Below the pieces are notes generated by a model that saw nothing but the letters and a program-made list of their open reading frames with translations, had not been told where the DNA came from and made no database searches. Below, piece by piece: positions 528 to 53,149 of a DNA stretch of 63,683 nucleotides (the stretch's first letter is position 1; each line of letters begins with the position of its first letter). The DNA lies in the IMG/VR virus record IMGVR_UViG_3300045988_129598. One strand, written 5' to 3'. Position numbers and translations under genes: made by a program. The stretch is from a virus.

Positions 528-552
528 ATCATAAGAAATGTTAATTCCGCGA
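528..552 (-). promoter_or_regulatory. TCGCG-N14-TATGAT motif copy
   Basis: Minus strand TTCGCGGAATTAACATTTCT-TATGAT-AGAGAG overlaps the holin stop codon, upstream of gene 164..502. Confidence 0.4.
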
Positions 553-10225: not shown

Positions 10226-10269
10226 CGTATTCTATCTCCTCTATTATAGCATATGTTCTTGACGCGAGG
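10226..10269 (-). promoter_or_regulatory. extended promoter/leader element (44 nt, copy of 36867..36910)
   Basis: Minus strand CCTCGCGTCAAGAACATATGC-TATAAT-AGAGGAGATAGAATACG. It matches 36867..36910 at 41 of 44 nt and contains TGn-TATAAT. Confidence 0.55.
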
Positions 10270-25424: not shown

Positions 25425-27122
25425 TCAGCCAGCAGATTCGACGGACTCAATCGCCATAGCGGAGTACGGCTTAATCAGCGCACCGGAGAAACGGGTTTCA
25501 ATCAGATACTTCATGGCATTGAAATCGATGTCAAAGCCGTCGAACATCCTCACCGAACCGCCATTGTCAGCGCCTACATTGTAGTCGTTTAGGTTGACAA
25601 TTAGGCCGAGCAGATTATGCATTTCGACCTTGCCGCCATTGTTGACCTCACGGGACAGACCTTCCATCGTCGGAACAGTCACGATCTCCTTAACGCGCAG
25701 AACCGTCCTCAGCTTCTCCATCGTATCGTAAATCACGCGGCCGGTGGTGTCCTCAATCAGCAGCATGTCCGTCACAACATCCTCGGTCGTATAGAAAGTC
25801 GGATCGCCGGAACCACGATAGTTCTTGCGGCTCTTGATGATGGCGCGAATGGTCGCCTTGGCGCGATCGGAATCGGAAGCGTTCTGCGCAACCGTCACCG
25901 GAACTTTGATGGTAAACAGATCGGAATCCTTCCAGACAGGGCGGACATGATCCTCGGCGATCTTGTCGTCGCTGGAAGACAGACGGCCATCACCCGTCAG
26001 AATTGCACGGGCGCACTCCTCGTCGAGCATCATTCGCATCTCGATCTTGAGCCATGCGATTACATCAAAGTCGGTAATGTCCAGCACGTCGTCTCGATCC
26101 ATCTTCTGCTTCTTGTAGATGGTCGTCGGATCAGTCGTACGCTTCAGCAGGCTGAAGACTTCTTCCTTCTTAAACTTGCCTTTAATGTAGCCCTTCGCGC
26201 GAGCCTCATCCTCGGTCAGGTCGGCAAACATCGACTTGACACGAGAGAACGGAGTGCGATGAACGGCGTTCATAACCTTCGCCACCCAGTCATCCTTGCG
26301 CTTGATGAACTCAGGCGGGGTATTCAGGTTGTGCGGTTCCGGGAACAACATGCCGACATCCTCAATGCCATGTGCCAAAGCAGCTTCCTTGAGCGAACCG
26401 CAGCGCTTGCCATCGCCGAGAATTTCGGCAAACTCAGCATGAGTCGGGGTGTTTTTTGGGGTATCATTTTCAAAGACATTATGCTTCACTTCTTCGTCCT
26501 CCTTGTTGTCGTCGGCCCCGTCTTCTCCCTTGGAGTCCATAGCCTGACCGACCAAATAGTACACGACGTCCTTCTGTTCCTCATTGAGGGTATTGAAGAC
26601 ATCCTTAACCGTCTTTTCCTTATTGCTGTCTGCCATTTTCTTCTCTTCTTTTTCCGGCTCGTCGGCGTGCTCGAGCGAAATATCCATGTTCGTATAAATA
26701 AGCGCTTCGGTCGCTGCGTCCTCGCCGTGCTGAATGTCCATGTAGTCAATCAAAGCGCCAGGATTCGCACCAGCAAGCACAAGGCTGACTTCCTTAATCG
26801 ATCCATGGAGAACGTCGCCATGATCCTGCTTGAGACCATTGGCATAAATAGAAAGCGCACAAATATCGCCATGCCGGATCAGCTCCTTAGCATGGCGTGC
26901 ACTATCGGTGTTGTTGAACGTGCAGTAGGCGTACACACCTTCATCCTTATTTTGAAGGAGCGCGTGTCCGAGCACGTTTTCGGGGTTACTGTGGCTGTGC
27001 TGCCAAACCAGCGGAACAGTGTGGCCGTCATCACCTGCAAAAGCATTGCGTCGAATCGTTCGGCCATCACTGCATCGGAGGTCGTTCTTGGTTGCCCAGC
27101 CGCTAAAGTCGTATTTACTCAT
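25425..27122 (-). CDS. prohead protease (HK97/S78-like) - linker - major capsid protein fusion
   Basis: N-terminus VPLVWQHS...LSIYANG...IKEVSLVLAGANPGA gives the protease motifs. An acidic/Lys-rich linker and a capsid-sized C-terminal part follow. ATG at 27122 follows AAAGGAGA. Confidence 0.75.
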   Translation of the reverse strand: MSKYDFSGWATKNDLRCSDGRTIRRNAFAGDDGHTVPLVWQHSHSNPENVLGHALLQNKDEGVYAYCTFNNTDSARHAKELIRHGDICALSIYANGLKQDHGDVLHGSIKEVSLVLAGANPGALIDYMDIQHGEDAATEALIYTNMDISLEHADEPEKEEKKMADSNKEKTVKDVFNTLNEEQKDVVYYLVGQAMDSKGEDGADDNKEDEEVKHNVFENDTPKNTPTHAEFAEILGDGKRCGSLKEAALAHGIEDVGMLFPEPHNLNTPPEFIKRKDDWVAKVMNAVHRTPFSRVKSMFADLTEDEARAKGYIKGKFKKEEVFSLLKRTTDPTTIYKKQKMDRDDVLDITDFDVIAWLKIEMRMMLDEECARAILTGDGRLSSSDDKIAEDHVRPVWKDSDLFTIKVPVTVAQNASDSDRAKATIRAIIKSRKNYRGSGDPTFYTTEDVVTDMLLIEDTTGRVIYDTMEKLRTVLRVKEIVTVPTMEGLSREVNNGGKVEMHNLLGLIVNLNDYNVGADNGGSVRMFDGFDIDFNAMKYLIETRFSGALIKPYSAMAIESVESAG

Positions 27123-28359
27123 TGGGTCTCCTTTCTTGAGTTTGAATCTGTTCGTTTGCTTCTTCCTCAATCACCTGATCGGAAGCGTTGAGGTTTTTGT
27201 TGCGCAGCTTGTCCGCATCCGGGTCTTCCGAAGGCTTGAAGCCGATAATCTGCCGGATTTCATTCGAGCTGAGAATTGCATTGCGCGTGAGCTTGTCTGC
27301 CGTCTCCGCGATCTGATCCGCAGGCATGAGTTTGAATGGCTCACGGAAGAATGCAATAACCTGCCCTTGAGATCGGGCAGTTTTGGTCAGGAATTTTCGC
27401 TTCATCTCATCTGCAATCGCAGAAAGAATCGGCTCAATGGTTCGGTTATAGTAGTTAAGCATGGTCTTTTCATCGGCCGTTCCATCGAGAACCGTCGTTG
27501 TCATGCTCAACTGGCTATAAACCATGTTTGTCAGATACTCGATTTGACTCATCAGGTTATTCTCAAGCGAACGGTTGAGCTGAACGACTTTTTCCGTACC
27601 GTCCGTATAAGCGATTCCATACTTACTTCCAGCCAGCTGCATTTCGATGTCTTTTCGCCGCTGCTCCGCCTGAGCTTTGCGAGCCTCGGATTTTACGACG
27701 TAGGGCAGCTGAATAATTAGGTCCAGCTTTCCAGCGCCGTTCTGTTCATCGATCTGATCAAGTAGATTAAGCTTTCGAACAAGCCGCTGCATGGTTGAGT
27801 TGGGTTCATTCATCACGGCAAAGAATGGATTCTCGATAATGGCGACGGACTTTTTGGGGAGTATAATATCTTCCTTGATGCCTGTCTGTTCATTGTAAAG
27901 ATTCACTCTGACGTGCTGGGGGAACCAATCCACAATCTTGCCAACTCGCATCGAATTGACGTCAAATACATTGCTTCCGGTCTTCGTAATATCATTCGTG
28001 GTATCGACTGGAACAATCGCAACGCAGCCCTCGTCCAACATCGACTGAATCACATCCTGCATGAAAGCACGTCCTGTCTGGTCGATGTTGGCAGAAACGG
28101 TCAGACACTCATTCAGACCGCTTTTTCGGGCAAATAAAAAACGGCCATCGTCGTCGAGCTGTACATGCTCAAACAACGTGGCCGCCGCATCGATTGAAAT
28201 TCTGGTGTAGATGGCGGAGACAATCGATCGCTCATTGCCTCTCGTATATCGAGGTCGATCTGGTCGAGTTCCGCCGTAATACCCTCCGTATTGAACCTTC
28301 GGAGGGTCTTTGTTCAGGAATGCATTCCATCCATGCTGTAGTTTGTCTAAGAAGTTCAT
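27115..28359 (-). CDS. portal protein
   Basis: 414 aa between the terL region and the protease-capsid gene. ATGA-type overlap with the next gene. Confidence 0.7.
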   Translation of the reverse strand: MNFLDKLQHGWNAFLNKDPPKVQYGGYYGGTRPDRPRYTRGNERSIVSAIYTRISIDAAATLFEHVQLDDDGRFLFARKSGLNECLTVSANIDQTGRAFMQDVIQSMLDEGCVAIVPVDTTNDITKTGSNVFDVNSMRVGKIVDWFPQHVRVNLYNEQTGIKEDIILPKKSVAIIENPFFAVMNEPNSTMQRLVRKLNLLDQIDEQNGAGKLDLIIQLPYVVKSEARKAQAEQRRKDIEMQLAGSKYGIAYTDGTEKVVQLNRSLENNLMSQIEYLTNMVYSQLSMTTTVLDGTADEKTMLNYYNRTIEPILSAIADEMKRKFLTKTARSQGQVIAFFREPFKLMPADQIAETADKLTRNAILSSNEIRQIIGFKPSEDPDADKLRNKNLNASDQVIEEEANEQIQTQERRPNE

Positions 28360-28574: not shown

Positions 28575-29060
28575 TCACTCCTTATTTCTCGCCGGAATAA
28601 TATGCGCTCCGGCTTTTCCATAATGGATGATTCCATATCGAGTCTTGGATTCCTGCCTGGTTTCTTCATCGACATATATTCCGAATACTCTGGAAGCTCT
28701 GACCCTTTCTTTGTTATTAAATTCGCCATGTCTATTCGTGAGTGCCTTCCCAGTTCCATATAGATCAGAAATCAGGGTCTGGCAGTCCTTAAGATTGCCC
28801 AGTATATAGCTCTTTCCCTCTTCGAAATTGTGACTGCCCTTTATATGCTTCGTCTGATTACTGACATTCACTTTAACCGAAATCTTTCCGGCTTCAAGGG
28901 CTTGCATTACCTCTGAATTGGGATTGCGTTTATGATGGGTTTCTCGATTATCCCTGCATCGTTCTCGGCCTTTAGCTGTAAGCGTTCCATCTGCATTTTG
29001 AAATCGGCGAACTCCCCACTTCATGCCTAGAATACCATGATGATAGAGTTCGTTTTCCAC
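28575..29060 (-). CDS. protein with polymorphic-toxin-type-50-like C-terminal domain
   Basis: GTG start after GAAGGTGA. C-terminus QTKHIKGSHNF..GKSYILG...LYGTGKAL...KERV...TRYGIIHYGKAGAHIIPAR matches the remembered PT50/Ntox50 pattern (..IIHYSKKGAHIVPARP). Confidence 0.6.
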   Translation of the reverse strand: MENELYHHGILGMKWGVRRFQNADGTLTAKGRERCRDNRETHHKRNPNSEVMQALEAGKISVKVNVSNQTKHIKGSHNFEEGKSYILGNLKDCQTLISDLYGTGKALTNRHGEFNNKERVRASRVFGIYVDEETRQESKTRYGIIHYGKAGAHIIPARNKE

Positions 29061-29073
29061 TTCTTCACCTTCT
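28987..29073. repeat. 87-nt direct repeat (copy 1) flanking terL
   Basis: 85 of 87 nt identical to 31348..31434. Encodes the shared N-terminus VENELYHHGILGMKWGVRRFQNADG plus the RBS. Confidence 0.9.
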
Positions 29074-30825
29074 TTATTCAAAAGAATCCTTATTTGCTTT
29101 ATAGGCCACATAAGCATCTATAAGAGCTGCCACAACGTCAATCTTAGCCTCGTGGCGCTTCTTCATCAGCTTTCGGTTGCCATTCGTGTCCTCAAGGGTA
29201 ATTGCGTTTCCCAAACAAAATGTCGTGATTCCCTGATCAAAGATGAGCAGTCTCTCCTCGGCAAACAACTTAATCTCCCCAAGCGGAACAGTCTCTGTCT
29301 TCGCGCCCTGAATGACCTTCTCGATGCCGTAAACACCATTCTCTCTGGCCCAGCGTTCAACAAACTCCTTCGCATTGTACGGGTCGTAACCAAACGCTCG
29401 AACGTCATAAGCCACTTCATTTGTCAGCCATTGATCAAGATCGTCGTATACGGCTTCCATGGTAATAACCGTCCCCTCAAGAACAATCAGGCTGCCATCC
29501 TCGATGAATTGATCATACTTAAACCTCAATGCACTCGGCAGCTTCGCAAGTGTAATTGAACTGATGTAGCATCTGGCCTTCACACCAAAAGCGCCGCCGC
29601 GCAGCGGAAACAGAAATGTAAAAGCGCAGAAGTCATCACCCTGCGAAAGATCAGCGCCCATCGCGCACGGCATGCCGTCAAAGCTCTGATGCGGATGCGG
29701 TATCGTTTCCTCGTATGTGAAGAAGTAGGTATATCCCTCCATCGGGATACCGAATCGCTTGGCGAGAATATCATTTCGGGTTGCAGGGGCTTTTTCCGCT
29801 CTCTCTACATCCAGCTGGTAGGTCTCGTAAGTTACGGTCTTTCCAATGTTGGGATTCGCTTTCATCCACATTGCCGGGTTGGAGACTTCTTTTACATCAT
29901 CGAGTCGGTAATACCAGATTGACACACCCGGGTTATAATACTCTCCTTTGAGAATACTCAACAGTTCCATTTTGATTGTGTCGCCGCTGCCGTTACGCAC
30001 TGTACCCTCAGAACTTGTTGCAATAATCAAGTAGTCGTCCAGTTTACTCGCACCCTGCTCAATCGCGCCAACAACGTCCTCTCGGACATCGCCACTCAGC
30101 CATTCATCAACAGTTGACACCTTAGGTCGATAGCCTTGAAGCTTGTCAATGTCCATTGGCAGAACCTCAAGAACTGAGTTGGTCAGAAAGTTCTCAATAC
30201 CTTTCTTGGTCGAAGCCAACTTGACACGATTGGCCTTTGAGCCTGTCGTGTTCTGAAGACTGCCTTCCGTCAAAAACTTGAACATCGGCCCTCTGGCACG
30301 AGTAATAGCCGACTTGAACGGCTTGAGAATTTCCTCCGCCTGTCTCATCGTGGGTGCTGTCGCAATCTGACTAGTCGTCGAATTGTTTGCCGTCAACGAA
30401 TACGACTGATGACAGGTATCGTAAAGCGTTTTTGCCGCGCCTCGTCCGACGATAAGATACTGCTTCTTTGTCAGGCGCCTTTTGATAAGCTTATGAACAT
30501 ATTGTCCGCCATGCCCATCAGGATTTGGCTCATAGACTTCCCGCTCAACATAGTAATACCAGCAGAAAACCTGCTCTGCCCATAGCTTGAAGCTGTCGAG
30601 CATGTGAAAGTCCGAACCGTCTGTCAGCACCAACTCGTTTTCGCAAAAGTCAATAAAATGCTCTACGGGCAGCGGGTCGTAATAAATTCCCGGATTCGCA
30701 ATCAGCGCGTCGATTCGGTTCATCTCCATTGAAATTGTCTGACAGACTGGAATTTCACCTCGAAGAACCGCATCCCGAAACAGACCATAATACTTAGGAA
30801 CAGCGGTGTTGGAAAGCCTACTCAA
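29074..30825 (-). CDS. terL: terminase large subunit
   Basis: 583 aa. Walker A context YLIVGRGAAKT, with a nuclease-sized C-terminal half. TTG start per the track (TTGA overlap with the upstream stop). Confidence 0.85.
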   Translation of the reverse strand: MSRLSNTAVPKYYGLFRDAVLRGEIPVCQTISMEMNRIDALIANPGIYYDPLPVEHFIDFCENELVLTDGSDFHMLDSFKLWAEQVFCWYYYVEREVYEPNPDGHGGQYVHKLIKRRLTKKQYLIVGRGAAKTLYDTCHQSYSLTANNSTTSQIATAPTMRQAEEILKPFKSAITRARGPMFKFLTEGSLQNTTGSKANRVKLASTKKGIENFLTNSVLEVLPMDIDKLQGYRPKVSTVDEWLSGDVREDVVGAIEQGASKLDDYLIIATSSEGTVRNGSGDTIKMELLSILKGEYYNPGVSIWYYRLDDVKEVSNPAMWMKANPNIGKTVTYETYQLDVERAEKAPATRNDILAKRFGIPMEGYTYFFTYEETIPHPHQSFDGMPCAMGADLSQGDDFCAFTFLFPLRGGAFGVKARCYISSITLAKLPSALRFKYDQFIEDGSLIVLEGTVITMEAVYDDLDQWLTNEVAYDVRAFGYDPYNAKEFVERWARENGVYGIEKVIQGAKTETVPLGEIKLFAEERLLIFDQGITTFCLGNAITLEDTNGNRKLMKKRHEAKIDVVAALIDAYVAYKANKDSFE

Positions 30826-31421
30826 ATATAACCAGACCGATTAAGCATCGATCGTCCTTTCAGCCATGCGTCATATCGAGCCTGCTCTCTCTGAGCCTCT
30901 CGTTCCTCATTCTGCTTGGCGTCGTAAGCCGAAGTAAGGGTATAGGCGGCCGTCTCTTTTTTGATTCGGTCATTATAGAGCTGTAAATCTTTGGAGCTCA
31001 TTCGCTTCGGGTCGGCATGGGAATCGATCAAGTCCCTCGCTCGCTTGTCATCTGCTTTGGTTTTCTCCTTAGCCTGCTCTTCTTTGAAGTTATCGACTAT
31101 TCGGGAAACCAACCACTTCCCACTTGCCTCTATTGCGCCTAGAACGGCTTTTTTCCCAGCCTGAACAAGTCGATTGGGCTTTGGGGCAGTTAGCTGCTTG
31201 TATAGCTGCTCATTTCTCAATCGGTTGATTGTATCCTGAAGCTCTTTGTCTGACATCTCGGAAACTTTCTTTTTTCGAGGCGCATCGGCAGAGCCTGTAC
31301 TCGTTCCCGAATCTCTATACCGAGACTTTCCGGCTTCAGTCAGACTTCCATCCGCATTTTGAAATCGGCGAACGCCCCACTTCATGCCTAGAATACCATG
31401 ATGATAGAGTTCGTTTTCCAC
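30822..31421 (-). CDS. paralogue of 28575..29060 N-terminus with unrelated charged helical C-terminus
   Basis: GTG start. The first ~29 aa are identical except one residue to gene 28575..29060. The remainder is Lys/Glu-rich. Confidence 0.6.
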   Translation of the reverse strand: MENELYHHGILGMKWGVRRFQNADGSLTEAGKSRYRDSGTSTGSADAPRKKKVSEMSDKELQDTINRLRNEQLYKQLTAPKPNRLVQAGKKAVLGAIEASGKWLVSRIVDNFKEEQAKEKTKADDKRARDLIDSHADPKRMSSKDLQLYNDRIKKETAAYTLTSAYDAKQNEEREAQREQARYDAWLKGRSMLNRSGYI

Positions 31422-31434
31422 TTCTTCACCTTCT
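31348..31434. repeat. 87-nt direct repeat (copy 2)
   Basis: See 28987..29073. Confidence 0.9.
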
Positions 31435-31439: not shown

Positions 31440-31748
31440 TTAATACTCCTTTTGGCAATGCCTATATAGTCGCCAAGCGCTCTCGTCGATCTGTTTATTG
31501 AGTGCATCCAAAACATATGAACTCGACGGCGGGTCGAAAAGTTTCTGAGTACGCAAAGAAATATACTCCTTGCTGCCCTCGACGACGAACGGGTCTTCCG
31601 ACCATTCGCTCCATACAGCGCCGGAATCGTGAATTCGGAACGGAACCTCCGGTCCAACACCCATATCTTGCAGCGTGGCGAATGCTCCATTGATGTATGT
31701 AATGATCCTTAAATCGAATGATCTATCCTCGGCCACCACGCCGACCAT
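31440..31748 (-). CDS. hypothetical protein (packaging/head module)
   Basis: 102-aa ORF between HNH and terL. Function not recognised. Confidence 0.55.
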   Translation of the reverse strand: MVGVVAEDRSFDLRIITYINGAFATLQDMGVGPEVPFRIHDSGAVWSEWSEDPFVVEGSKEYISLRTQKLFDPPSSSYVLDALNKQIDESAWRLYRHCQKEY

Positions 31749-31793
31749 CTGTTTAATGTAATCGAGAATACTATCTATGGAAACTCACCATCC

Positions 31794-32551: not shown

Positions 32552-32797
32552 TTTCGGTTCCCTCTTTCTATGTTAAATATCACTTTAAGAGGGCTTTGCT
32601 TGAGATACCGACCAGCTTCCTCCGTCCCTGAAAGGAGAGAAACCACGAACGGCTCTACCACGAGCATGAACTCTGGCCAGTATCTCGAGCAAAACCCTCC
32701 GGCAAAATATCCACCGGAGAATTTTTAAAGAGACGGGCGATTTGAGAGGGGGTGCTGTTTTTGGAGACCCCTCCCCCCTGTCGCTCATGGGAATGTT
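32552..32797 (-). other. 246-nt GC-rich non-coding region: candidate cos/pac site or structured RNA
   Basis: No ORF. G/C runs (CCCCTCCCCCCTG). 18-nt long-range pairing GCUCGAGAUACUGGCCAG / CUGGUCGGUAUCUCAAGC with 17 pairs, 2 of them G-U, in minus sense only. Confidence 0.45.
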
Positions 32798-33055
32798 TTA
32801 GACTTCCCGGACCACTCTCTTGTAATTGTCGGTGGGATCGAGCTCAAGAATCCATCGAATTGCTTCATCAAGATCACTTTCTTGATCCGCTTGACTGAGT
32901 TCTTGAGATGTAACAAGATGACGATCAATAAGCTGGCAAGTATTGTAGCCATGATCTTCATCAAAGCGAATCCAATCATCGAATTGCGTAAATGGATCAA
33001 ATGGATTGTCTTTAGTTGTTACCCAAACTTCTTTTGTTTTTGTAATTTCCGCCAT
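32798..33055 (-). CDS. hypothetical acidic protein
   Basis: 85-aa ORF with a good ATG context after gene 33071..35881. Confidence 0.55.
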   Translation of the reverse strand: MAEITKTKEVWVTTKDNPFDPFTQFDDWIRFDEDHGYNTCQLIDRHLVTSQELSQADQESDLDEAIRWILELDPTDNYKRVVREV

Positions 33056-33070: not shown

Positions 33071-35881
33071 TTAAGATTTAGGTAAGTTATCGTTAAGAGC
33101 ACGAATAACAGTGCTTGCTGAGACACCTAAAAAACTGGCAATTTCATCATTTGTGTAGCCGTTTGCACTCAATCGTTTAGCTCTTGCAATTTTAGCAGCA
33201 GGCATGACCGAACTATTTCTCGGCATCGCATAGGATTTTACGACATCCATGTCTGCATTCTTTAGAATTTGGGTGAGTTTGTTGTGTGTAATTGCGCCAG
33301 CTTGAATGGCTTCCCATTCTTTTGGCGTAATCTTAATACGCGTTTTCTTTGCGCCTACTCGAAGACGCGCTTCTGTCAAAGATTGTCCTTTGATCTTCTT
33401 TACTTTATCGGCATCCTGCCTGTATTCAGGATTTGCATCCATCTTGGCTTTAAAGTTGTAATTGGCAAGAAGCTGGGCTTGACGTTCTAGTGGCGCGTTC
33501 TTTAGTGCTTCGTTGAGTTGGGCGTTAAGACTTGCTACTTCCTGAGCATAGGCTTGCTTTGCGGAGGGATTGTATTTTAAAGGCTTTACGCTCAAACTTT
33601 CTTTTCTAGCTTCATTTGCGAGTGCTTTCAATTTATTCGCATGTACTGCATACGCGCTTTCCATGACGGTTCCAGAAGATAAAGAAAAGGCGTCCTTCGT
33701 CTCGTACATCTTAGTGCTTTCGAGAGTCTTGGGCGTCTCTTTGTATATTGGTTTTCCATCTGCGTCGCGCTTGACTTCGCCAGTCTTTGTATTTTTAACT
33801 GGCTTGTTATACGTTTCTCCTGTTTCGGTGTAAAGCTTTTCGCCGGTTTCGGAATCGATGTAGATTTTCTTCTTCTTTCCGGTTTCTTTATCTTTTACAA
33901 CGATTCCGTCTTTGCGATCTGGCACTCGTTCTGTGCTACTCGCTTTTGAAAGTAATGTAGAAGCTCCCGATTTAGCTTTGCCTTGGTACTTAATCTTTAG
34001 CTCTGCGATGTCGTTATCTTTATACGACTGTTGATAATTCAGCTCGTGCTTTTTTGCATCAATAACGACCATTGAATGCCGAACAGCTCTAGCTAATTCA
34101 TCAGGAGTAGGGTTCTGAAGGCTCATATCTGTGATGAGATTGGTAATCATTCCCATCTCTCGTCCTTTTTCCTGATCTGTCATGACGTGCATTCCAGGAT
34201 ACTTAGGATAGGCTTCCTTAGGATCGAAATTTTTTAAGCCTTGCAGAGCAGGAGCGGTCTTCATTTTTCCGTCATTATTCGGAATGACCAGAACACTATC
34301 TCCATCAAAATCCGCGCCACTTAGCTTTTCTGCTGTCTTCGCGTTAATGACAACAGCGTCAATGGGATTGTTTCCTATGATCTTTCTGCCTGCACTCGAT
34401 TCGCTATTATTGACTACACATTCTGGAATCTCGAACCTTCCCGCATGTGGAAATCTGATTAAAACAACGCTCTCGCCATCATGAAAATTAGGCGCATAGA
34501 TCTCTTTTTCCGGAATGTCCGGAGATGGAAGAATGACCTGTGTTCTTTGTCTCGGTAAAGCGGCAGCCTTTAAGTGTACAGCGGCAGCATCACAATCGTC
34601 GGCAAAACTATCGAGCAACTGTTTCTTAACTGCGGGGTTCGTGGTAGCAAGAATATCTTTGAATTCTTCTGCCTTGGCATCATACGCGAGCCCAAGTTGT
34701 TTTTTAGCTAATGCGTATGTCTGTTTAGAAAGTACCTGCGACGAAAGGGATTTGCTCCATTCATTCCAGTTTCCTTCTTCATTGACAATATTAAGCGCCG
34801 ATAATTTCTCTTCTCCTGTTTTGGGATCGATATAATGCCGTTGAGCACGAACGAGCTGGTCATCCATTTTGATAGTTGCACCAAATGGATTTACCGGGTC
34901 CTTTTCCATCTTTTTGAAGACTTTTTCCGATTTATCTCTCGTTTTGTTTGTATTATAGATTATATCATAGCCATCGGGAATATCGTCTGAGTAGACAGCC
35001 ATGCCCTTCATATACTTATTTCCGTCAACAGCAATTCGAACCTGAGCATAATTAGCATTACCAAGAGAAATATCAGGCACTCCTCTGCGAAGCTCAATTA
35101 GGCCGTCTTTTTGGGCACCACCCGTTCCGTCATCATTTGTATAGTTCACATAGACTCGCTTGCTGTCAATAGAGACTGGCGGTTCAAGAGCTCTAGCTCT
35201 AGTACCATTATCCTCCATATAAAAATTTGTCGGGAGACTGATTTTTTCTTTGTTATCAACAAGTTCTTTATACCCGACATCATTTTTAGTTAGGACTTTG
35301 ATACTTGTTTTGTTATTCGTGCCCATCTGATCGACCTGAACGTATTGGATTTTATATCCTTGCTGCTCAAGTAGAGCGATGGCTGTTCGCATTCTTGTAG
35401 AGCTTACCGGCATAGCAAACTGATGCTCTGTTCCGCTGCCGACATCGATATATTTTTTCTCATCTACCGCAGCTTTAAGTTGGTCAGCCAGTGCGTTTGT
35501 CATGTTGTTCCGCTCTTTGAGATGCGGATCGAGCAATGCACGAACAGAACTTTCATTCTTACCCATGCGTTGGCCAATGGCGACATTGGAATATCCTTTT
35601 TCTTTCAACTTCCAAGCCATTGCCGATTCTTCTTTTCGGATTTCGGCTTTTGCAATGGATAGCTTGGCGCGAAGCTGACTGGTGGTCATTTCCATGCTAT
35701 CCGCGATCTGTTTCTCACTGAGTCCGTTTTTCCGCAACTTCGTAACATGCGAAACAAAGTTTCCGTTTCTCTGATAGGGATTCTCGCCAGATCCCCAAGG
35801 ATATCTTCCGCTATGTCGAGGGGTTCCGTAGTGTTCGAGCTCATCGGTTTCTTCTTGCCCAATAAGTTTTCGATCGTCCAT
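33071..35881 (-). CDS. two-barrel (YonO/RdRP-like) RNA polymerase candidate with N- and C-terminal HTH domains
   Basis: SGADFDGDSVLVIP (DFDGD codons 34298-34312) preceded by VVLIRFPHAGRFEIPECVV. Upstream YAQVRIAVDGNKYMKGMAVY (34994-35008 = KGMAV). HTH-like segments at both ends. ATG at 35881 follows GGAGGG. Confidence 0.6.
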   Translation of the reverse strand: MDDRKLIGQEETDELEHYGTPRHSGRYPWGSGENPYQRNGNFVSHVTKLRKNGLSEKQIADSMEMTTSQLRAKLSIAKAEIRKEESAMAWKLKEKGYSNVAIGQRMGKNESSVRALLDPHLKERNNMTNALADQLKAAVDEKKYIDVGSGTEHQFAMPVSSTRMRTAIALLEQQGYKIQYVQVDQMGTNNKTSIKVLTKNDVGYKELVDNKEKISLPTNFYMEDNGTRARALEPPVSIDSKRVYVNYTNDDGTGGAQKDGLIELRRGVPDISLGNANYAQVRIAVDGNKYMKGMAVYSDDIPDGYDIIYNTNKTRDKSEKVFKKMEKDPVNPFGATIKMDDQLVRAQRHYIDPKTGEEKLSALNIVNEEGNWNEWSKSLSSQVLSKQTYALAKKQLGLAYDAKAEEFKDILATTNPAVKKQLLDSFADDCDAAAVHLKAAALPRQRTQVILPSPDIPEKEIYAPNFHDGESVVLIRFPHAGRFEIPECVVNNSESSAGRKIIGNNPIDAVVINAKTAEKLSGADFDGDSVLVIPNNDGKMKTAPALQGLKNFDPKEAYPKYPGMHVMTDQEKGREMGMITNLITDMSLQNPTPDELARAVRHSMVVIDAKKHELNYQQSYKDNDIAELKIKYQGKAKSGASTLLSKASSTERVPDRKDGIVVKDKETGKKKKIYIDSETGEKLYTETGETYNKPVKNTKTGEVKRDADGKPIYKETPKTLESTKMYETKDAFSLSSGTVMESAYAVHANKLKALANEARKESLSVKPLKYNPSAKQAYAQEVASLNAQLNEALKNAPLERQAQLLANYNFKAKMDANPEYRQDADKVKKIKGQSLTEARLRVGAKKTRIKITPKEWEAIQAGAITHNKLTQILKNADMDVVKSYAMPRNSSVMPAAKIARAKRLSANGYTNDEIASFLGVSASTVIRALNDNLPKS

Positions 35882-35885
35882 AACT

Positions 35886-36533
35886 TTAACCCTCCATAAG
35901 TTGCTTCTGGACAAAATCGCTTGCGTATACGATCTGGTCCATTACTGATAGTATTCTGTCGGGCTCTGGTTGTAGAACCTGAACATCATTGTTTTGATAG
36001 ATCCGCAATTCGACTTGCGTATGCTCCGGGTGCGCATCTTCGATTTCGCCGTACTCCAAGAAGAACAGCGCAGCATATTGCTCAAGCTGCTTCATAGATA
36101 CAGGACTAAGACCTGTTTTGAGATCATGGATGCGAAGAATATCATTTTCAAACTTGATCGTATCTGCTGTTCCAAAAGCCACCGAACTGTAAGCCAGCAC
36201 AATTTCGGGGTCCATTCTTAGAGCAATGGCATCATTTACATAATTCATCAAATTCGGAAAAATATAATCGATGTCAATCGCTCGACGGGGAATCCGCTGA
36301 TCTCGAATTAAAGAAAACAACACGCCATTCTTTTCAGATTTAGTCAGCTTAATATGGGCTTGAATCCGATCCTTTGCATACAAATGGACGGCTGTTCCAA
36401 GTTCGGTTGCATAGTAGGCTTTCAGCTTGGCTGTCAGAATATCATTGAGATTATCTTTGTCTACCCAATGATAATTACTTGGGCTAATGATGGCATGTTT
36501 GCCTTCAATCGCCAAATGCTGCTTGTAATGCAC
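35886..36533 (-). CDS. PD-(D/E)xK-like nuclease (hypothetical)
   Basis: GTG at 36533 follows AGAGGAGG. The ILRIHDLKTG context resembles RecB/Cas4-type D-x-K cores. Assignment is weak. Confidence 0.45.
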   Translation of the reverse strand: MHYKQHLAIEGKHAIISPSNYHWVDKDNLNDILTAKLKAYYATELGTAVHLYAKDRIQAHIKLTKSEKNGVLFSLIRDQRIPRRAIDIDYIFPNLMNYVNDAIALRMDPEIVLAYSSVAFGTADTIKFENDILRIHDLKTGLSPVSMKQLEQYAALFFLEYGEIEDAHPEHTQVELRIYQNNDVQVLQPEPDRILSVMDQIVYASDFVQKQLMEG

Positions 36534-36801
36534 AAAGTACCTCCTCTTTGTTTTCGGGATAGATAAAACGAGCAAAGCTCAAATTATCCATTTTTGAAAC
36601 ATAATAGTCTTGGTTCGGTTGATGACCCGCTTTGGCATCTTTTTTGCATTCGAGAAGCGCCCACTTGTCGTTATAAAGAATAAGGAGATCGGGAAAGCCC
36701 TGAATATAAGTTGCATCAGTCTTCAGGACAACGCTTCCAGGGAACATGCTTTTCAGCTCTCGGATCAGACTGCTCTGAAACGCGCTCTCTTTGGGAGACA
36801 T
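36505..36801 (-). CDS. VRR-NUC-type nuclease
   Basis: ATG at 36801 follows AAAGGAGG. GFPDLLILYNDKWALLECKK gives the PD...E-x-K motif. The track's N-terminal extension covers the terminator. Confidence 0.6.
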   Translation of the reverse strand: MSPKESAFQSSLIRELKSMFPGSVVLKTDATYIQGFPDLLILYNDKWALLECKKDAKAGHQPNQDYYVSKMDNLSFARFIYPENKEEVLCALQAAFGD

Positions 36802-36817
36802 CCGATCTCCTCCTTTG

Positions 36818-36847
36818 CGAAAAATAAAAGGAGATGTTTCCATCTCC
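36818..36847 (-). terminator. intrinsic terminator inside the leader, upstream of the nuclease/packaging genes
   Basis: Minus strand GGAGATG-GAAA-CATCTCC followed by TTTTATTTTT, 17 nt before the RBS of gene 36505..36801. Confidence 0.65.
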
Positions 36848-36866
36848 AACGATAGAATATAAAAGT

Positions 36867-36910
36867 CGTATTCTATCTCCTCTATTATAGCATATGTTTT
36901 CTACGCGAGG
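36867..36910 (-). promoter_or_regulatory. extended promoter/leader element (copy of 10226..10269)
   Basis: Minus strand CCTCGCGTAGAAAACATATGC-TATAAT-AGAGGAGATAGAATACG, directly after the helicase stop. Followed by hairpin GATAGAATA/TATTCTATC (36851-36877). Confidence 0.55.
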
Positions 36911-36911
36911 G

Positions 36912-38189
36912 TTATGCTCCAACAAAAGCCTTTTCGTTAAAGTTCTTCTTCATTTTCAGCGTGTTGGCAATCGCTGTATCGATCTTGGCTCGGCTTCTCA
37001 AATGGTAATAGTACAGGTCTTTGTACGGGGTATTCATTCGGTCAATTCTTCCGGCTGCCTGAATCATAGTTTTATAGCTATAGTTCTGACTATAGAATAT
37101 CATTGTGTTCGTCTGCGTACAGTTCCATCCTTCCGCACCCGCAGTATATTGGACAAGATACGCCCATCTTTTTCCGAGAGGGATTTTCTCATGCTTGTGC
37201 CCATTCCATTCTCGAACTTCGACCTCATCGCTAAGGGTAGCCTTGAGTAATTCCAATTCATAGTCAAAGTTGTAAAATATAATGGCAGAGCCACGGGCGG
37301 ACAATATCTCCTGTACAGTATGTATCCGATCCATGTCTTCGTTGACCACTCTTCGAAGCAAATAGCAAAGGGCAGCGACCTCTTGGATTGGCTCGTTCTC
37401 ATACGGATTCCATCTCCTTTTTATAATCATGTTGTACTTCTGAATATCATACCCCGTATAAATTACTTCATGATGCTGGATGGTATTCCTCTCAAAAGGC
37501 ATTTCAACGATCAGTCGTTTGCGCAGTTGCTCAAGCCGCTTTGTTCCAACGTAACGATCAATCTGTGGATATTTGGCGAATCTCTTATAGATGATGTGCT
37601 CATTGATAAACTCCGTTCGATTCTTATAAAAGCCGTTAGCAATAAAAACTGGAATATAATCTGTCCAAGTATCACCGGGTGTAGCAGACAGCAAAATCCA
37701 AAAGTTCTTCTTAGCAATTTTGAGGAATGCTTTGACCCATGCGCCACTTCCAACAACTCGCTGTTCGTCAAATATGAAGAATGCGTCCTCGACATTGGCG
37801 TATTTCCCGATGTTGTTCCAGCTGTCTACGGTTACTTTTATGCCAGCTCTGCTCTCCTGAGGCAAAAAAGAAAGGCCGAAGAATCGGCACTCATCATCCC
37901 ACTCGTGCGTATCGCGCTTCCGAGCAGTAGTGATGATATACAGATCCTTCGGCTTTACCGGATGCTCAAGATTCTCGTCAAACCCGCAGCTTTTCCACAT
38001 AAAATATCCAAGAGAGGTCCTACTCTTTCCTGAACCTACGCCTCCGCAAAGAATACAGCCGTCTCTCAATTCCTCAATCGCTTTTTGCTGATGCGGATAT
38101 AAATCAGAATACGTCGTCATCTTCCTGATAATCGGCGTAGTCATCGTCAAAGGTGGTTCGTTCGGCTCTCTGAACCGCTTGGAACTCAT
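36912..38189 (-). CDS. SNF2/DEAD-box-like helicase
   Basis: Motif I CGGVGSGKS, motif II FFIFDEQ, motif III LLSATP, motif VI QAAGRIDR. Start uncertain because the ORF overlaps the SSB gene by 86 nt. Confidence 0.8.
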   Translation of the reverse strand: MSSKRFREPNEPPLTMTTPIIRKMTTYSDLYPHQQKAIEELRDGCILCGGVGSGKSRTSLGYFMWKSCGFDENLEHPVKPKDLYIITTARKRDTHEWDDECRFFGLSFLPQESRAGIKVTVDSWNNIGKYANVEDAFFIFDEQRVVGSGAWVKAFLKIAKKNFWILLSATPGDTWTDYIPVFIANGFYKNRTEFINEHIIYKRFAKYPQIDRYVGTKRLEQLRKRLIVEMPFERNTIQHHEVIYTGYDIQKYNMIIKRRWNPYENEPIQEVAALCYLLRRVVNEDMDRIHTVQEILSARGSAIIFYNFDYELELLKATLSDEVEVREWNGHKHEKIPLGKRWAYLVQYTAGAEGWNCTQTNTMIFYSQNYSYKTMIQAAGRIDRMNTPYKDLYYYHLRSRAKIDTAIANTLKMKKNFNEKAFVGA

Positions 38190-38664: not shown

Positions 38665-38911
38665 GCTTCTTCTCCTTTTCAAGCTCAAGGTACTTATTCA
38701 GATACCAGATTGCCTTTGAAATATCTTCTGTTCCGTTCTTCTTTTTATGACGGTAGAGGTACTTAAATGCATTACAGACGCAGAAACTTTGCACGGCATC
38801 GATACCCTGCGTCTCCGCCATAATATCAATGCACTCAAACTTCCCTGTCTTGTAGTGTTCGGGGTGGTTTACATGCTCTTTAGCTCGGGGCAAATCTGAA
38901 AGCTTATTCAT
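38651..38911 (-). CDS. DUF3310-like protein
   Basis: VNHPEHYKTGKFECIDIM...FCVCNAFKYLYRHKKKNG..DISKAIWYL matches the remembered DUF3310 pattern. ATG at 38911 follows GGAGGG. Confidence 0.6.
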   Translation of the reverse strand: MNKLSDLPRAKEHVNHPEHYKTGKFECIDIMAETQGIDAVQSFCVCNAFKYLYRHKKKNGTEDISKAIWYLNKYLELEKEKKHENV

Positions 38912-41900
38912 CCCTTGGCCCTCCGATGCTTTCTCCAAGGAACCATTCGATGTCACCAAATCTTGATAAGCTTGCAACTGCCTCATCGACCAGTTTTCGG
39001 TAATAGGATTCATCTACCGTGTCCTCCTTTTTCAGTTCCCGCAGAAATTCGGCTTCTCGCCATCTATAACCCTTGGTTCCCGTTACAGAATCAAACTTTT
39101 CGCCGGAATCCCTAACCAGTCTCGCACCGCCTGTTCCCGGAAGAACAGGACAGAATTGGCCACATTTACCGATGAATATCCGATTATGCTCGTCCTCTCC
39201 AAGATTCTCGTCAAAATCCAGATAGATAGCGGTCTTGACGCTCTTGGTCTGACAATAATCATTGAACACAATGGGTTCTTTCGAGAACAGGGTCTTGAAC
39301 ACATACGGTTCCGCAAACTGCTTACCGGTCGCCGTCCACTGTCCAGGCGCTTCAGGATCATCCTCAGCCAATTTAGCAATATAAACTGCATTATTGACCA
39401 AACAGATTTTCTCGAAGATGTGCTCAATCTCGAAATCGTACCCATACCGTTTACCGAAAGCGATAATCTCTTTCTGCAATTCCGGAGACGGATTAAGCAC
39501 TTTAATCGAATCGGTCTTGATATGGATAACTTCTCCGCCACGCTCATGAACATAATTCAACAGGTCGATCATGAACAACGCGCCGCGCTTGGCAACGATG
39601 TTATCGATATTGCGTGGATCGTGGAACGCATTGTCGAAGTGCGCAGCGGTCAAACCGTATACCGAATTGATCGCAATCTTGAGCGCCTGCGACAGCTGCT
39701 TAGCTTTGGCCGGGTCAGTCAAATACTTGGCCAGCTTTCCACCAAACATCTTTCCGGCCTTCTCGAAATCTTTATGTTTGATCGCGATTCGTGTATTAAG
39801 CAAGTCGTTGAATACCACGGTGTATTGGCCAAATAGATACTCGCTCGTAATACTATGCGGGTGCATACTGGCCACGTCAAATGTAATTGTTCGACCATAC
39901 ATTCCGGGTTTGGCCCATACGAATCCTCCTTCACCAGGGTCAAAGCCGCCATACGAGGATGTTGGTTTCTTCACAATATCAGGTTCTATGCTTTCAGGAT
40001 CGCGTCCATCCCAATTAAACCCTACGAGCTTATATAGTTCATGCCCTGAGCCTTTCTTGAAATCGTATCCTGGAAAATACGGAAGATCACTTTTTGCTTC
40101 GCCGAAAGGCTCCCTCATCATCTCAGAAAAGTTTGCTTTAAGAAAATCCTTTTCCGGAGAATCATCCGGCAGTTGAATAGGATCTGCCAGATTGCGATAA
40201 ACGAAAGAACTCTGAGGATTTTTAACATTTCCGAATATCAATCGGGCAGTCAGCTGATTTGTCGTGTCATTCACTGTTCCACCTGCGATATCTGCAAGGA
40301 TCTCTCTAGCCACGAAATCCGCCTGCCGAGCATTCCAAACAGCCTCCGTTGCAATAACGTCGTTGTCACAATACTCAGCAACCAACTGCCATTTGTCTTC
40401 GGGCACAGGCTGATCCCAAGGTAAGCCAAGCTCTTGATGGTGAATTCCAAGATCAATCTCGAATTTCTTCAAACTCTGCTTCGTGCTCGAAAAGTCATAG
40501 ACATCCGTGTAACTCACATTGTATGCTTGCCCAAACATCGCATTTCGATCGCCAGAAATGATTGCCTGACTGATATCATAAAGTTCTTCGATGCTCTTTC
40601 CGAGATATCTGGCATAAAGGATATGATTATCATATCGACGACAGTTAAAACCGATCAGCTTCTTTTGCATCAGTTCCCCAACATCTTGCGGACTTGGGTT
40701 AATCATCCGAACACATTTGCATTCTTTGCCCGGATACTTCCAGTTGACAAGGAAAAGATTCGGAAATACCTCGATATCAAAAAACACGAGCGGCTCTTCG
40801 GCGTAAGTGCCGGGCTCACTCGTGTCTTCACTCTTGTATTTCATTTTCATTGCAATCTTCGTGCATCGTTCGCTCTGATGCGTGCTTCCCGCAGCAAAGG
40901 CCAGGACAGCAGGTTTCATGTCGCTCACGTCGTAGGCCATCCCGCTTTCGTAAGCCTTATCGAGAATATCATTGATAAGACCAATCGAGGAAGCGGTCGA
41001 GCCTACGATTTCTTTACGAAGATGGCGGTTAATCAATCGCCTTAGTCCTTTTTCGCTTTTGACAGCTTTTTCATTGACCATTGGCTTCTCCTCTTTCAAC
41101 GGAAGTCCGCTCGTAATCGTGGCAATCGGAATATCATTGCACTTCGTTAGCCTACGTCGGCAGCTGCTCTTGCCTGTGAACACTTTGACTTCAATGTTCG
41201 GCGCATAAAGCCGTTGAAGCTGCTTCGGGTCGCCTCCCTCATAAATATAATGCAGATGAATGCCCGCTCCACCCTTACTGAACTCGGCATACGTTTTTGG
41301 CCACTTTGATGCCGCTTCGAGATTTCGCTCAACGGATTTCTCGCCTGAATCGTCTTTCAGGTCAAAGTCAATCACGATATGATTCTCAGGCAGCATGACA
41401 TAATGCAGCTTATCTGTGCAAATATCAGCCAGAGTTGTCGTCACCTTGTCCCATGCGATAAGCGGCGTGCCATCCTCAGTTGCGTATTGGGCAGGATAGT
41501 TCGCATAAATATCATCCAGCAAAGATTCGGTGCAATCGAGTTTCAGCCACGATCCTTTTTCCTTTGGCGCTTCCTCCTTGGCTTGCTCTTCCGGTCGAAA
41601 CTTCTTTCGGATAAACCCTGAATAATATTTCCGTACTTGCTTTCCATCGATACGCTCCATGTCGGCATAATGCTCGAAATAGTTCTTCAGCTCCTCTCGA
41701 AATTTGTACATCGGCAGCTTGGCTTCGGTTCCACTATCTTCGCAATATTCCTTGTACATCGCATAGGCAATTTTCAGAGTCGTGCAATCCTGCTTATCGA
41801 AGATATCATACTTATCCTCGACAAAGTTGAAGAAGAAGTCGGTCTTGTACATCATGTCCATCGGCCGATAGGCATTGTAATAGTCTTTTCCCATCTCCTT

Positions 41901-47623: not shown

Positions 47624-47644
47624 ATAGTGCTCTCCTTTCAAATA

Positions 47645-47892: not shown

Positions 47893-48372
47893 TCAAAAAC
47901 ATTCCGGTACATCAGCATGCTTACGTGAAATGGGCATTTCCGTGTAAATGAGCGCTTCAGTTGTCACATCGTCGCCATGCTGAACATCTATGCAATCAAT
48001 AAAAGCGCCGGGATTTGCACCGGTGAGAACCAAACTTACTTCCTTGATAGAGCCACGAAGAATAATACCATGATCTTGTTCTATGTCAGTGGCGTAGACT
48101 GAAAGGGCCCAAATATCACCACGACGAATCAGCTCTTTAACGTATCGTACGCTATTAGTGTTGTTGAACGTGCAGTAGGCGTACACACCTTCATCCTTAT
48201 TTTGAAGGAGCGCATAGCCTAGCATATTTTCGCGAGTATAGTCGCCGTGTGTCCAGAGCAGTGGGACAATATTCCCGCCATCTTTCGCAAACGCATTTTG
48301 ATGGATAATTTGCTCGCCTGCATATTCGAGGTCAGTCTTGATTACCCATCCGCTAAAGTCACATTTATTCAT
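47893..48372 (-). CDS. stand-alone paralogue of the prohead protease domain
   Basis: Aligns along its whole length with the N-terminal ~160 aa of gene 25425..27122 (PLLWTHGD, LSVYATD, IKEVSLVLTGANPGA). 56 nt are identical (48158-48213 = 26908-26963). Confidence 0.7.
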   Translation of the reverse strand: MNKCDFSGWVIKTDLEYAGEQIIHQNAFAKDGGNIVPLLWTHGDYTRENMLGYALLQNKDEGVYAYCTFNNTNSVRYVKELIRRGDIWALSVYATDIEQDHGIILRGSIKEVSLVLTGANPGAFIDCIDVQHGDDVTTEALIYTEMPISRKHADVPECF

Positions 48373-48390
48373 CGGGACTCCTTTCAAATA

Positions 48391-53126: not shown

Positions 53127-53149
53127 GAATATCCTCCTTTCGTAAACGG

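Follow-up and report, generated by a model that had tools for sequence, protein, structure and literature searches.

A predicted single-chain, two-barrel RNA polymerase with helix-turn-helix units at both ends, and a conserved promoter-like motif, in phages of Actinobacteria and Firmicutes

Results

A 936-aa phage protein with invariant polymerase-type motifs

The IMG/VR virus record IMGVR_UViG_3300045988_129598, 63,683 nucleotides (nt) long and called the window when we refer to the whole stretch analysed, carries on its minus strand (33071..35881, stop codon counted) a gene for a 936-amino acid (aa) protein that resembles single-chain RNA polymerases built around two beta-barrels. Bases 1-99 of the window equal bases 63585-63683, which makes the record a circularly closed (or terminally redundant) assembly of a phage genome of 63,584 bp, and essentially all of its genes lie on the minus strand. 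The longest open reading frame (ORF) at the locus, 33071..35914, starts with TTG and encodes 947 aa; an ATG at 35881, 8 nt past a GGAGGG ribosome-binding site, gives exactly 936 aa. An earlier note on this DNA had proposed the 936-aa ORF and read it as a polymerase gene. The ORF list and translation confirm that the ORF is real, on the minus strand and 936 aa long in its ATG-started frame, and every peptide quoted in that note is present in the translation. These peptides are KLSGADFDGDSVLVIP (aa 519-534), which contains DFDGD (aa 524-528, its codons at 34298-34312, just where they had been placed); GESVVLIRFPHAGRFEIPECVV (aa 469-490); NANYAQVRIAVDGNKYMKGMAVYSDDIPDGYDIIYN (aa 275-310), said to lie ∼230 aa ahead of DFDGD and found ∼230-250 aa upstream of it; and three helix-turn-helix (HTH)-like segments (aa 54-74, 96-117 and 908-929).

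The residues expected to form an active site do not vary in this family. In a MAFFT alignment of 276 full-length homologues, with identity down to 37%, D524, D526, G527 and D528 of the DFDGD loop and Q280, R282, K292 and G293 of the upstream segment are 100% invariant, so that DFDGD and the Q-x-R...K-G segment, whose conservation the earlier note had left to be checked, are retained throughout the set. The same is true of R476, P478, N581, L582, D585, D608, K611 and H612. Judged from the sequences, the catalytic-type motifs are far beyond chance, and because the metal-binding Asp residues, the basic residues and further core motifs are all invariant, a vestigial active site is not expected.

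Predicted fold and structural relatives

We examined AlphaFold2 models of the full-length protein, built from a 42-sequence alignment (predicted local distance difference test score, pLDDT, 78.8), and of the core alone (aa 235-650, pLDDT 82.6). The full-length model begins with a disordered segment (aa 1-39), two three-helix units (aa 42-142) and an alpha/beta domain, continues with a six-strand beta domain (aa 243-368), long helices and a second beta domain (aa 446-534) in which the DFDGD loop is terminal, and ends with helical and beta-rich inserts followed by two more three-helix units (aa 853-930). We assign the first beta domain (34778..35155, minus strand) as a predicted beta-subunit-like barrel, from its strand pattern in both models and from Q280, R282, K292 and G293 (window 35003-35044), which belong to it and are invariant across the 276 sequences; R282 and K292 lie on a beta-hairpin predicted in both models (strands 278-285 and 289-298). 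The second beta domain (34280..34546, minus strand), with the invariant DFDGD loop, is the predicted beta-prime-like barrel. The published definition of the two-barrel superfamily is a DxDxD triad in one barrel and two basic residues from the other; the invariant DFDGD and R282/K292 fit this definition.

Structural comparison points the same way. When the full-length model was compared with the PDB by Foldseek, the best match was RDR2 (E 3.5e-5), followed by beta-prime or largest subunits of multisubunit RNA polymerases. With the core-only model, QDE-1 accounts for the top nine matches (E 9e-9 to 5e-7) in alignments of 516-544 columns, long enough to cover the region of both barrels; the tenth is P74-26 gp62, the non-virion RNA polymerase of a phage (E 1.5e-6), then RDR2 (∼2e-4), and after the top 12 come almost exclusively RNA polymerase largest subunits. 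Matches in BFVD are phage models called RNA-dependent RNA polymerase. Thus the structure prediction and Foldseek comparison, which the earlier note had suggested, put two-barrel polymerases on top for both models.

Sequence profiles detect the relationship more faintly. The Pfam RdRP (RNA-dependent RNA polymerase) family, PF05183, matches aa 515-656, centred on DFDGD, with 15.5 bits (E 0.0074) against a cut-off of 23.8, and it matches 34 of the 42 relatives at E up to 0.1 (best 1.7e-4), also below threshold; by Pfam's rule, the protein is on its sequence a distant relative of PF05183 and not a member. A PDB sequence search with the single protein returned no match, while the family profile found HTH look-alikes and a marginal match (E 0.56) at the DxDxD region of P23-45 gp96 (8h2n). 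The NCBIfam scan gave HTH matches alone, all sub-threshold. Assignment to an unrelated family, a case that the earlier note had raised, comes from none of Pfam, PHROG and NCBIfam.

HTH domains at both ends, also claimed earlier, are found with different degrees of support. The two C-terminal units (aa 853-930; 33092..33325, minus strand; modelled helices 853-885 and 895-930) include a segment, aa 899-930, that exceeds the Pfam gathering scores for both HTH_23 (34.3 versus 24.6 bits) and Sigma70_r4_2 (26.8 versus 25.7), and all 42 of 42 relatives match these two families. The two N-terminal units (aa 42-142; 35456..35758, minus strand) are modelled as three-helix units (helices 42-51/56-62/67-94 and 99-106/110-116/119-142); their Pfam matches are below the cut-offs (Sigma70_r4_2, E 2.6e-4, aa 52-79; HTH_23, E 7e-4, aa 88-116), and the region matches PHROG regulator families (phrog_4779 regulator, E 6e-8). 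Taken together, these results make the protein very probably a homologue of the QDE-1/RDR polymerases, with two barrels on a single chain and a pair of HTH units at each end, some of them similar to sigma region 4.

The protein shares with QDE-1 of Neurospora and RDR2 of plants a single chain in which the basic-residue barrel comes first and the DbDGD barrel second, and it shares the DFDGD signature. It differs from them in several respects: identity in the structural alignments is ∼14%, QDE-1 and RDR2 are cell-encoded RNA-silencing polymerases (PF05183) whereas this one is phage-encoded, and it adds four HTH units and a conserved N-terminal peptide to a chain that in the eukaryotic enzymes is without HTHs. 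Its template would be double-stranded phage DNA, rather than the aberrant RNA used by QDE-1 and RDR2.

The protein belongs to a widespread and previously predicted family

PHROG 4291 ("RNA-dependent RNA polymerase") matches the protein over its full length (E=0, 1190.6 bits, aa 9-931 against 6-907 of 909). Full-length homologues with 37-53% identity are found by tblastn in 251 deposited phage genomes, whose hosts are Arthrobacter, Gordonia, Streptomyces, Lactococcus, Curtobacterium, Microbacterium, Rhodococcus, Bifidobacterium and Faecalibacterium, and also in gut contigs. GenBank calls the product "helix-turn-helix DNA-binding domain protein" in most of the 251 records, while RefSeq calls it "RNA-dependent RNA polymerase". 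The family is large: at least 8000 homologous proteins turned up in a word-indexed search, and an exhaustive metagenome search gave 2469 clusters (50% identity), at least 915 of them at E<=1e-30.

This family has been described, as an 'HTH domain-containing putative RNA polymerase', by Koert et al. (bioRxiv 10.1101/842583), who obtained an HHpred match to PF05183 at 95.7% probability, described the DxDGD loop and HTH domains at both termini, and suggested a possible RNA polymerase whose gene may be a signature of an Actinobacteria-Firmicutes phage supercluster; promoters and virion association go unmentioned there. The 936-aa protein shares with that family the full-length match, synteny, the RdRP match, DxDGD and HTHs at both ends. 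The window itself is an undescribed gut-type phage, with its genes on one strand, an NrdD gene and at most 53% identity to deposited phages. The two-barrel RNA polymerase reading is therefore supported, but it is already published as a prediction, and we regard it as a rediscovery.

One part of the earlier reading did not survive. Besides RdRPs, the protein had been likened to YonO, the polymerase of the Bacillus prophage SPbeta; no Bacillus phage is among the 251 tblastn matches, and hhalign gave the family profile against YonO a probability of 1.3%, with the sensitivity of this comparison limited by the single sequence on the YonO side. With no meaningful alignment from hhalign, we dropped membership in the YonO family and describe the protein as RDR/QDE-1-like instead.

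A promoter-like motif precedes early genes and the polymerase operon

A 25-bp motif, TCGCr-N6-rCA-N5-TATAAT, occurs in 12 distinct copies in the window, all intergenic, on the sense strand and 5-100 nt ahead of an ORF start. The pattern search returned 13 matches (the assembly overlap being counted twice), all on the minus strand, where 0.19 were expected. The copies fall into two classes, ten of class I, which stand before small early ORFs, and two of class II. Class I copies lie on the minus strand at 63649-63673, 62587-62611, 62234-62258, 61789-61813, 60983-61007 and 60743-60767, and at 54388-54412, 53761-53785 and 53488-53512; a further copy, TCGCGGAATTAACATTTCTTATGAT (528..552, minus strand), is upstream of ORF 164-502. 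The first class II copy, TCGCGTAGAAAACATATGCTATAAT (36884..36908, minus strand), is 34 nt upstream of the string of genes for a VRR-NUC endonuclease, an exonuclease and the polymerase, and the other (10243..10267, minus strand) is upstream of an endolysin gene (9432-10163) whose product has NlpC/P60 and PG_binding_1 domains. Both belong to a 58-nt repeat, which at the polymerase operon spans 36864-36921.

The TCGC element is 14 nt from TATAAT, too near the hexamer for a sigma-70 −35 element, and no −35-like hexamer is present at 16-18 nt. In scans around the polymerase gene and in the early region, canonical sigma-70 promoters occur at chance level (23 versus 22.9 expected, and 20 versus 15.1), and thus we did not use them to define transcription units. 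A separate late-promoter motif was not found in the window; the endolysin gene carries the class II motif of the polymerase operon.

The early region (53133-63420, minus strand) has the form of repeated units of promoter motif, small ORF and strong hairpin-U terminator. We counted 17 terminator-like sites there against 10 expected, and several terminators abut the next motif copy (60803-60778, 53553-53520, 62291-62274 and others). The best canonical sigma-70-like promoter of this region, TTTACA-17-TATAAT with a TG (11 of 12 matches; 62890-62918, plus strand), runs opposite to the other genes, at the start of a 160-aa ORF (62907-63389, plus strand) that has no PHROG match and may be the sole leftward gene.

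The motif is conserved in phages of different phyla

The motif or recognisable variants of it occur in related phages of Arthrobacter, Gordonia, Streptomyces, Rhodococcus, Bifidobacterium, Faecalibacterium and Lactococcus, and in ten phages an array of copies stands before early ORFs. On the plus strand, the exact pattern CGCR-N6-RCA-N5-TATAAT is present 8 times in Circum, 11 times in Tanis, 13 times in ReqiPoco6, twice in BitterVaud1 and once each in Rosa and Camille; it occurs zero times on the minus strand of those phages and zero times in the 50-kb SPbeta stretch examined. The same register, on the sense strand only, is kept by tCGCGTAAATTACAnGGGcTATAAT in Circum (Arthrobacter), TCGCAgaaatTACACGTCCTATAATGAGACCCC in Tanis (Gordonia), the 13 copies of ReqiPoco6 (Rhodococcus), TCGCAagatyTACAnGGnnTtAAATGAGACCCC in RosaAsantewaa (Streptomyces) and the three copies of BitterVaud1 (Bifidobacterium), two of which fit the exact pattern. 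Counted by host, six other genera have phages that keep this register. In the Lactococcus phages P118 and 1706 the motif is reduced (ACATACCCTATAATGA and CTATAGTAGAAAG), and in FP_oengus it has a shifted form, CGCGAAAAAtgCAgcctcCTTTATGGA, in which the counterpart of the motif is CGCGAAAAA-N10-CTTTATGGA.

The class II arrangement is also shared, since a copy upstream of the polymerase operon is found in ReqiPoco6, Circum, Tanis, RosaAsantewaa and FP_oengus, and the class II copies of the window and of ReqiPoco6 have the downstream sequence AGArGGAnATAGAATAC in common. In RosaAsantewaa (TTAAAT) and in FP_oengus (CTTTATGG), the A at position 2 of the hexamer is missing and the register is kept. 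Recognition by sigma-70 needs an A at position 2 of the −10 hexamer, and therefore these Streptomyces and Faecalibacterium variants argue against a simple reading in which a housekeeping sigma factor recognises the motif. A literature search with the motif strings returned no phage paper that prints them. As a feature of these sequences, the conserved promoter-like motif across phages of different phyla is new here.

Two side observations concern the same phages. Actinophage copies extend as TATAATGAGACCCCTAyGAAAGGA-N6-8-ATG, a cassette of presumed start site, conserved GAGACCCC leader and ribosome-binding site that is repeated before unrelated small genes. In FP_oengus, 50 kb hold 33 copies of the octamer TGATATTT on the coding strand, for example at 3701, 9355, 12613-15178, 31716 and 31739; some stand at stop/start junctions and others within genes, the DNA polymerase gene having many of them. 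We considered this octamer as the promoter counterpart and rejected it, because it also lies inside coding regions; it was not seen in the window.

The polymerase gene closes the replication module next to cos

On the minus strand, a primase-polymerase gene (38904-42896, 1330 aa) is followed by genes for a single-strand annealing protein, a helicase, the VRR-NUC endonuclease (36505-36849) and a Cas4/RecB-like exonuclease (35886-36575), both identified by PHROG matches, and then by the polymerase gene and an ORF for an acidic 85-aa protein (32798..33055, minus strand; phrog_4303, E 9e-27) directly after it. Beyond a 246-bp gap come a 117-aa coiled-coil ORF, an HNH gene, a connector gene, a gene for a protein with a DUF7211 domain, and the large terminase, portal and other structural genes.

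This order is conserved. The endonuclease, exonuclease and polymerase genes follow one another directly in FP_oengus, Circum, RosaAsantewaa, Tanis, Camille and ReqiPoco6, and P118 and 1706 keep the order with a few extra genes, including the endolysin gene, between exonuclease and polymerase; in cos-ended actinophages the polymerase gene is second-to-last at the right end. A small ORF that we liken to the 85-aa ORF by position takes the last place before cos in Circum (gp99), Tanis (gp93), Rosa (gp55), P118 (gp80), 1706 (orf76), oengus (gp56) and Poco6 (gp107); the 85-aa protein of the window is a candidate cofactor, either for the polymerase or for packaging. Thus in all genomes examined, the replication module ends with the polymerase gene, VRR-NUC and the Cas4-like exonuclease standing before it and the small ORF and cos after it.

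The slot just upstream of cos, HNH and terminase had been claimed earlier, and the 246-bp gap bears it out: the physical genome ends, right and left, of four cos phages (RosaAsantewaa, Circum, Tanis and P118) can be aligned with it, as can positions 31660-31760 of the FP_oengus locus. From this alignment, we place the cos region at 32695..32778 (minus strand), with an element of G-run, TCTCCAAAAA and C-run at 32746-32778, a predicted cohesive end ...AAATCGCCCGTCT at ∼32731-32744 and a conserved left-end hairpin at 32695-32730. Overhangs at the 3' ends have been published for P118 (CGCCCCAGTC) and 1706 (GCCCTGTCT), and the predicted cohesive end is close to the second of these. A cos region of this kind (G-run, TCTCGCAAAA, C-run; ...CATCGCC... 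cohesive end; left-end CTCCGG hairpin) is kept across these phages, from those of Lactococcus to those of Streptomyces. At the right genome end there is a TCGCAAAA-like element whose register is that of the upstream half of the promoter-like motif, and this match suggests that one protein may bind both.

The genomic setting bears on two other explanations of the gene. The protein might be an RNA-templated or priming enzyme that copies RNA or single-stranded DNA and is not a phage transcriptase; it might, for instance, make primers for replication or recombination, R-loops together with the VRR-NUC and Cas4-like nucleases, or double-stranded RNA. The location of the gene among those for replication and recombination, where it shares an operon with two nuclease genes, would suit such a role, as would the use of RNA and single-stranded DNA templates by QDE-1 and RDR2, the closest solved structures, and the name 'RNA-dependent RNA polymerase' in RefSeq and PHROG. 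That name, however, comes from a Pfam family name and not from an assay, the phage already has its 1330-aa primase-polymerase, the four HTH units, which are of the sigma-r4/HTH_23 kind, suggest that the protein binds double-stranded DNA at specific sequences, and the conserved promoter-like arrays would stay unexplained. We consider an RNA-templated enzyme improbable.

More improbable still is a protein that mainly binds DNA, as a regulator or as a cos or packaging accessory, with a polymerase-like core that is structural only. This would agree with the annotation used in most of the 251 phage records, and the C-terminal HTH does resemble HTHs of terminase small subunits (phrog_309, phrog_7067; Terminase_5 in 24 of 42 relatives), in a gene that abuts cos in a phage with the TCGCAAAA-like element at its right genome end. 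It would leave without a reason the invariance, in all 276 homologues, of the metal-binding Asp residues, the basic residues and R476, P478, N581, D585, D608, K611 and H612, and the usual position of a small terminase gene is filled by the separate 117-aa coiled-coil ORF.

A conserved N-terminal peptide and hints of virion association

Ahead of the first HTH unit is a conserved peptide, DELEHYGTPRHSGRYPWGSGENPYQR (aa 12-38; 35768..35848, minus strand), that is predicted to be disordered (pLDDT <50 at aa 1-39 of the full-length model). Each of six residues in it (G19, S24, G25, R26, G30 and G32) is shared by at least 98% of the 276 homologues. Its consensus, ELxHYGtxRxSGRYPWGSG, bears a weak resemblance to that of Pfam DUF7211, ELYHHGIxGMKWGVRR.

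Lactococcus phage 1706 encodes a homologue of the whole protein, ORF75, with 37% identity across 986 aa; it has both DFDGD and the N-terminal peptide and was labelled 'structural protein' by its depositors, a label repeated in the ReqiPoco6 record. In the 1706 record, the unqualified label 'structural protein' is given to scattered ORFs, while the rest, including the neighbours of ORF75, are "putative ..." or "unknown", and this pattern suggests that the label derives from virion proteomics; the 2008 paper on phage 1706 reportedly used mass spectrometry. Proteins with DUF7211 adjoin a terminase or portal gene in FP_oengus, Rosa, Tanis and 1706, and the one beside the terminase gene of 1706, orf7, is likewise labelled structural. 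From these sequence comparisons and labels, we put the chance that the polymerase is delivered in the virion only a little short of even.

DUF7211 itself is seen in the window as well. Two ORFs flanking the large terminase gene (28575-29117 and 30822-31421, both minus strand) begin with it (MENELYHHGILGMKWGVRR), and their 5' ends share a 96-nt repeat with 95% identity (28978-29073 and 31339-31434). The one between terminase and portal has a C-terminal Ntox50 polymorphic-toxin domain (E 2.8e-25), a fusion comparable to those of MuF with toxins, and one that suggests a toxin carried as packaged or injected cargo. A homologue search with a 45-aa DUF7211 N-terminus yielded only 40 short fragments, and a literature search for DUF7211 returned nothing.

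Other features of the window

The NrdD anaerobic ribonucleotide reductase gene (56663-58804, minus strand; phrog_487, E 7e-205) points to a strictly anaerobic host. There are two phrog_2152 paralogues (46652-47641 and 54922-55707, both minus strand). In the region of the capsid-protease fusion gene, a 300-nt stretch (26652-26951) is repeated with 74% identity at 47902-48201 and a 58-nt stretch (27078-27135) with 83% identity at 48328-48385; the second copies of both fall within an early-region ORF of 164 aa (47893-48387). Finally, 21-nt periodic repeats, eight copies in register, are found at 8518-8895 within ORF 8250-9032, where they probably encode a heptad or collagen-like repeat of a tail- or lysis-region protein.

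Discussion

The reading of this gene that we favour, and to which we give an even chance, is that of a phage-promoter-specific, DNA-dependent RNA polymerase, possibly delivered by the virion. Its parts differ in strength. That the protein is an active polymerase transcribing phage DNA is probable; that it reads the 25-bp motif itself is a question on which the sequence evidence leaves us evenly divided. In the scheme we propose, the enzyme would be active independently of a host sigma factor, and its HTH units would read a phage promoter of fixed geometry, TCGCr-N6-rCA-N5-TATAAT-rrGA. Ten class I promoters would head monocistronic early genes, each closed by a hairpin terminator, and two class II promoters would stand before the endolysin gene and the polymerase operon. 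Where the DNA is circular or concatemeric, transcription of that operon would continue past cos and reach the head and tail genes. The class II unit would supply enzyme late, and this enzyme would be packaged, possibly by way of the conserved disordered N-terminal peptide, and would enter the next cell with the DNA to fire the class I promoters there.

Such an enzyme would have a functional analogue in the T7-type RNA polymerase, a single polypeptide that uses a phage-specific promoter of ∼23 bp, extending through the start site and repeated before many genes. The analogy goes no further than function, since T7 polymerase has an unrelated, right-hand fold, is not packaged and has its gene transcribed by the host polymerase. 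The late activators RinA, ArpU and Alt/Ltr of Firmicutes siphophages occupy the same genomic slot before the packaging genes, directly upstream of terS, but they are proteins of ∼100-150 aa that act on the host polymerase and are without a catalytic core.

Several observations weigh against the scheme. Since TATAAT is also the −10 hexamer of housekeeping promoters universally, most copies of the motif could be read by the RNA polymerase of the host. The polymerase gene is itself behind a motif copy, and thus without virion delivery the first enzyme needs another maker. The hairpin and U-tract terminators of the early genes are typical of units transcribed by host polymerase, and YonO, the only characterised phage relative with a comparable gene position, transcribes late and not early genes. 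The Foldseek TM-scores are low (∼0.33), and our literature searches found no experimental work, biochemical or transcriptomic, on any family member. The 'structural' label of 1706 ORF75 could reflect a DNA-bound contaminant. As to the N-terminal peptide, the Pfam DUF7211 model has no match to the N-terminus of the polymerase, and the sole match between the DUF7211 alignment and the family profile by hhalign is at aa 12-20 (P 0.018, probability 2.5%).

Some of these points fit better with the main rival explanation, a late polymerase of the YonO style, which we think possible though on balance unlikely. It would never be packaged and would transcribe the head, tail and lysis genes as one unit from near cos; the host housekeeping sigma factor would read TATAAT, with TCGC/ACA as the operator of a phage regulator, and the early genes and the polymerase operon would be expressed in this way. 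YonO is a processive DNA-dependent RNA polymerase that transcribes late genes; its gene is directly upstream of the late operon, where transcription begins at a single site, and the window gene holds the same position. The −10-like hexamer is a perfect TATAAT in most phages, the early units are closed by intrinsic terminators, and the TCGCAAAA-like element at the right end could belong to a late start site spanning cos. This explanation has difficulty with the 14-nt spacing and the lack of a −35-like hexamer at 16-18 nt, with the RosaAsantewaa and FP_oengus variants that lack the A at hexamer position 2, and with a motif geometry that stays constant in phages of Actinobacteria and Firmicutes whose guanine-plus-cytosine (GC) content is 20-30% below that of the actinobacterial hosts. 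Nor does it agree readily with the virion-protein label of the 1706 homologue, or with the endolysin gene sharing the class II motif of the polymerase operon where no separate late-promoter motif was found.

The known phage enzymes of this superfamily frame the favoured reading, a promoter-specific and possibly packaged polymerase. YonO and the window protein are both single-chain two-barrel phage polymerases, the latter by prediction, encoded immediately 5' of structural genes; they differ in that the motif of the window phage is missing from the SPbeta stretch. The YonO promoter is not known, and its authors left open whether YonO recognises a promoter alone or needs other factors. The Thermus phage enzymes, the non-virion P23-45 gp64 and P74-26 gp62 and the virion P23-45 gp96, are single-chain two-barrel polymerases of a clade that also contains QDE-1; N4 vRNAP and the crAss-like gp66 are further phage RNA polymerases packaged in the virion. 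With the Thermus enzymes there is a precedent for phage promoters being read by two polymerases, one in the virion and one not, whereas in the window phage one polymerase gene was found, and it is not fused to the tape measure gene. A term search for 'helix-turn-helix' in the Thermus-phage paper found no HTH modules.

The most far-reaching form of our proposal is that a widespread lineage of siphophages of ordinary size, spanning Actinobacteria and Firmicutes, carries in its virions a sigma-free, QDE-1-like polymerase, whose HTHs read a 25-bp cross-phylum promoter and whose DUF7211-like N-terminal peptide is a packaging tag shared with head-module proteins, including the Ntox50 fusion. We regard it as unlikely that all of this holds together. 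The lineage includes hundreds of cultured SEA-PHAGES isolates, dairy lactococcal phages and gut phages. A virion-carried polymerase would make early transcription independent of the host, and this would help explain how these phages cross phyla and how their GC content can be 20-30% below that of their actinobacterial hosts.

Single-chain two-barrel RNA polymerases are regarded as models for the ancestor of all cellular RNA polymerases. Few have been studied (YonO, QDE-1/RDR, crAss gp66 and the P23-45 enzymes), and how minimal enzymes find promoters is an open problem. This family could serve as a test system, in that a catalytic core and DNA-reading modules are fused in one chain, there is an explicit candidate promoter with natural variants (in FP_oengus and in the Streptomyces phage), and hundreds of culturable phages carry the gene. 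Unless the polymerase is both delivered by the virion and able to read that promoter, the gene is one more member of an annotated family. If it is both, it would represent a new and very common injected transcription machinery, and the spread across phyla that Koert et al. noted would have a mechanistic explanation.

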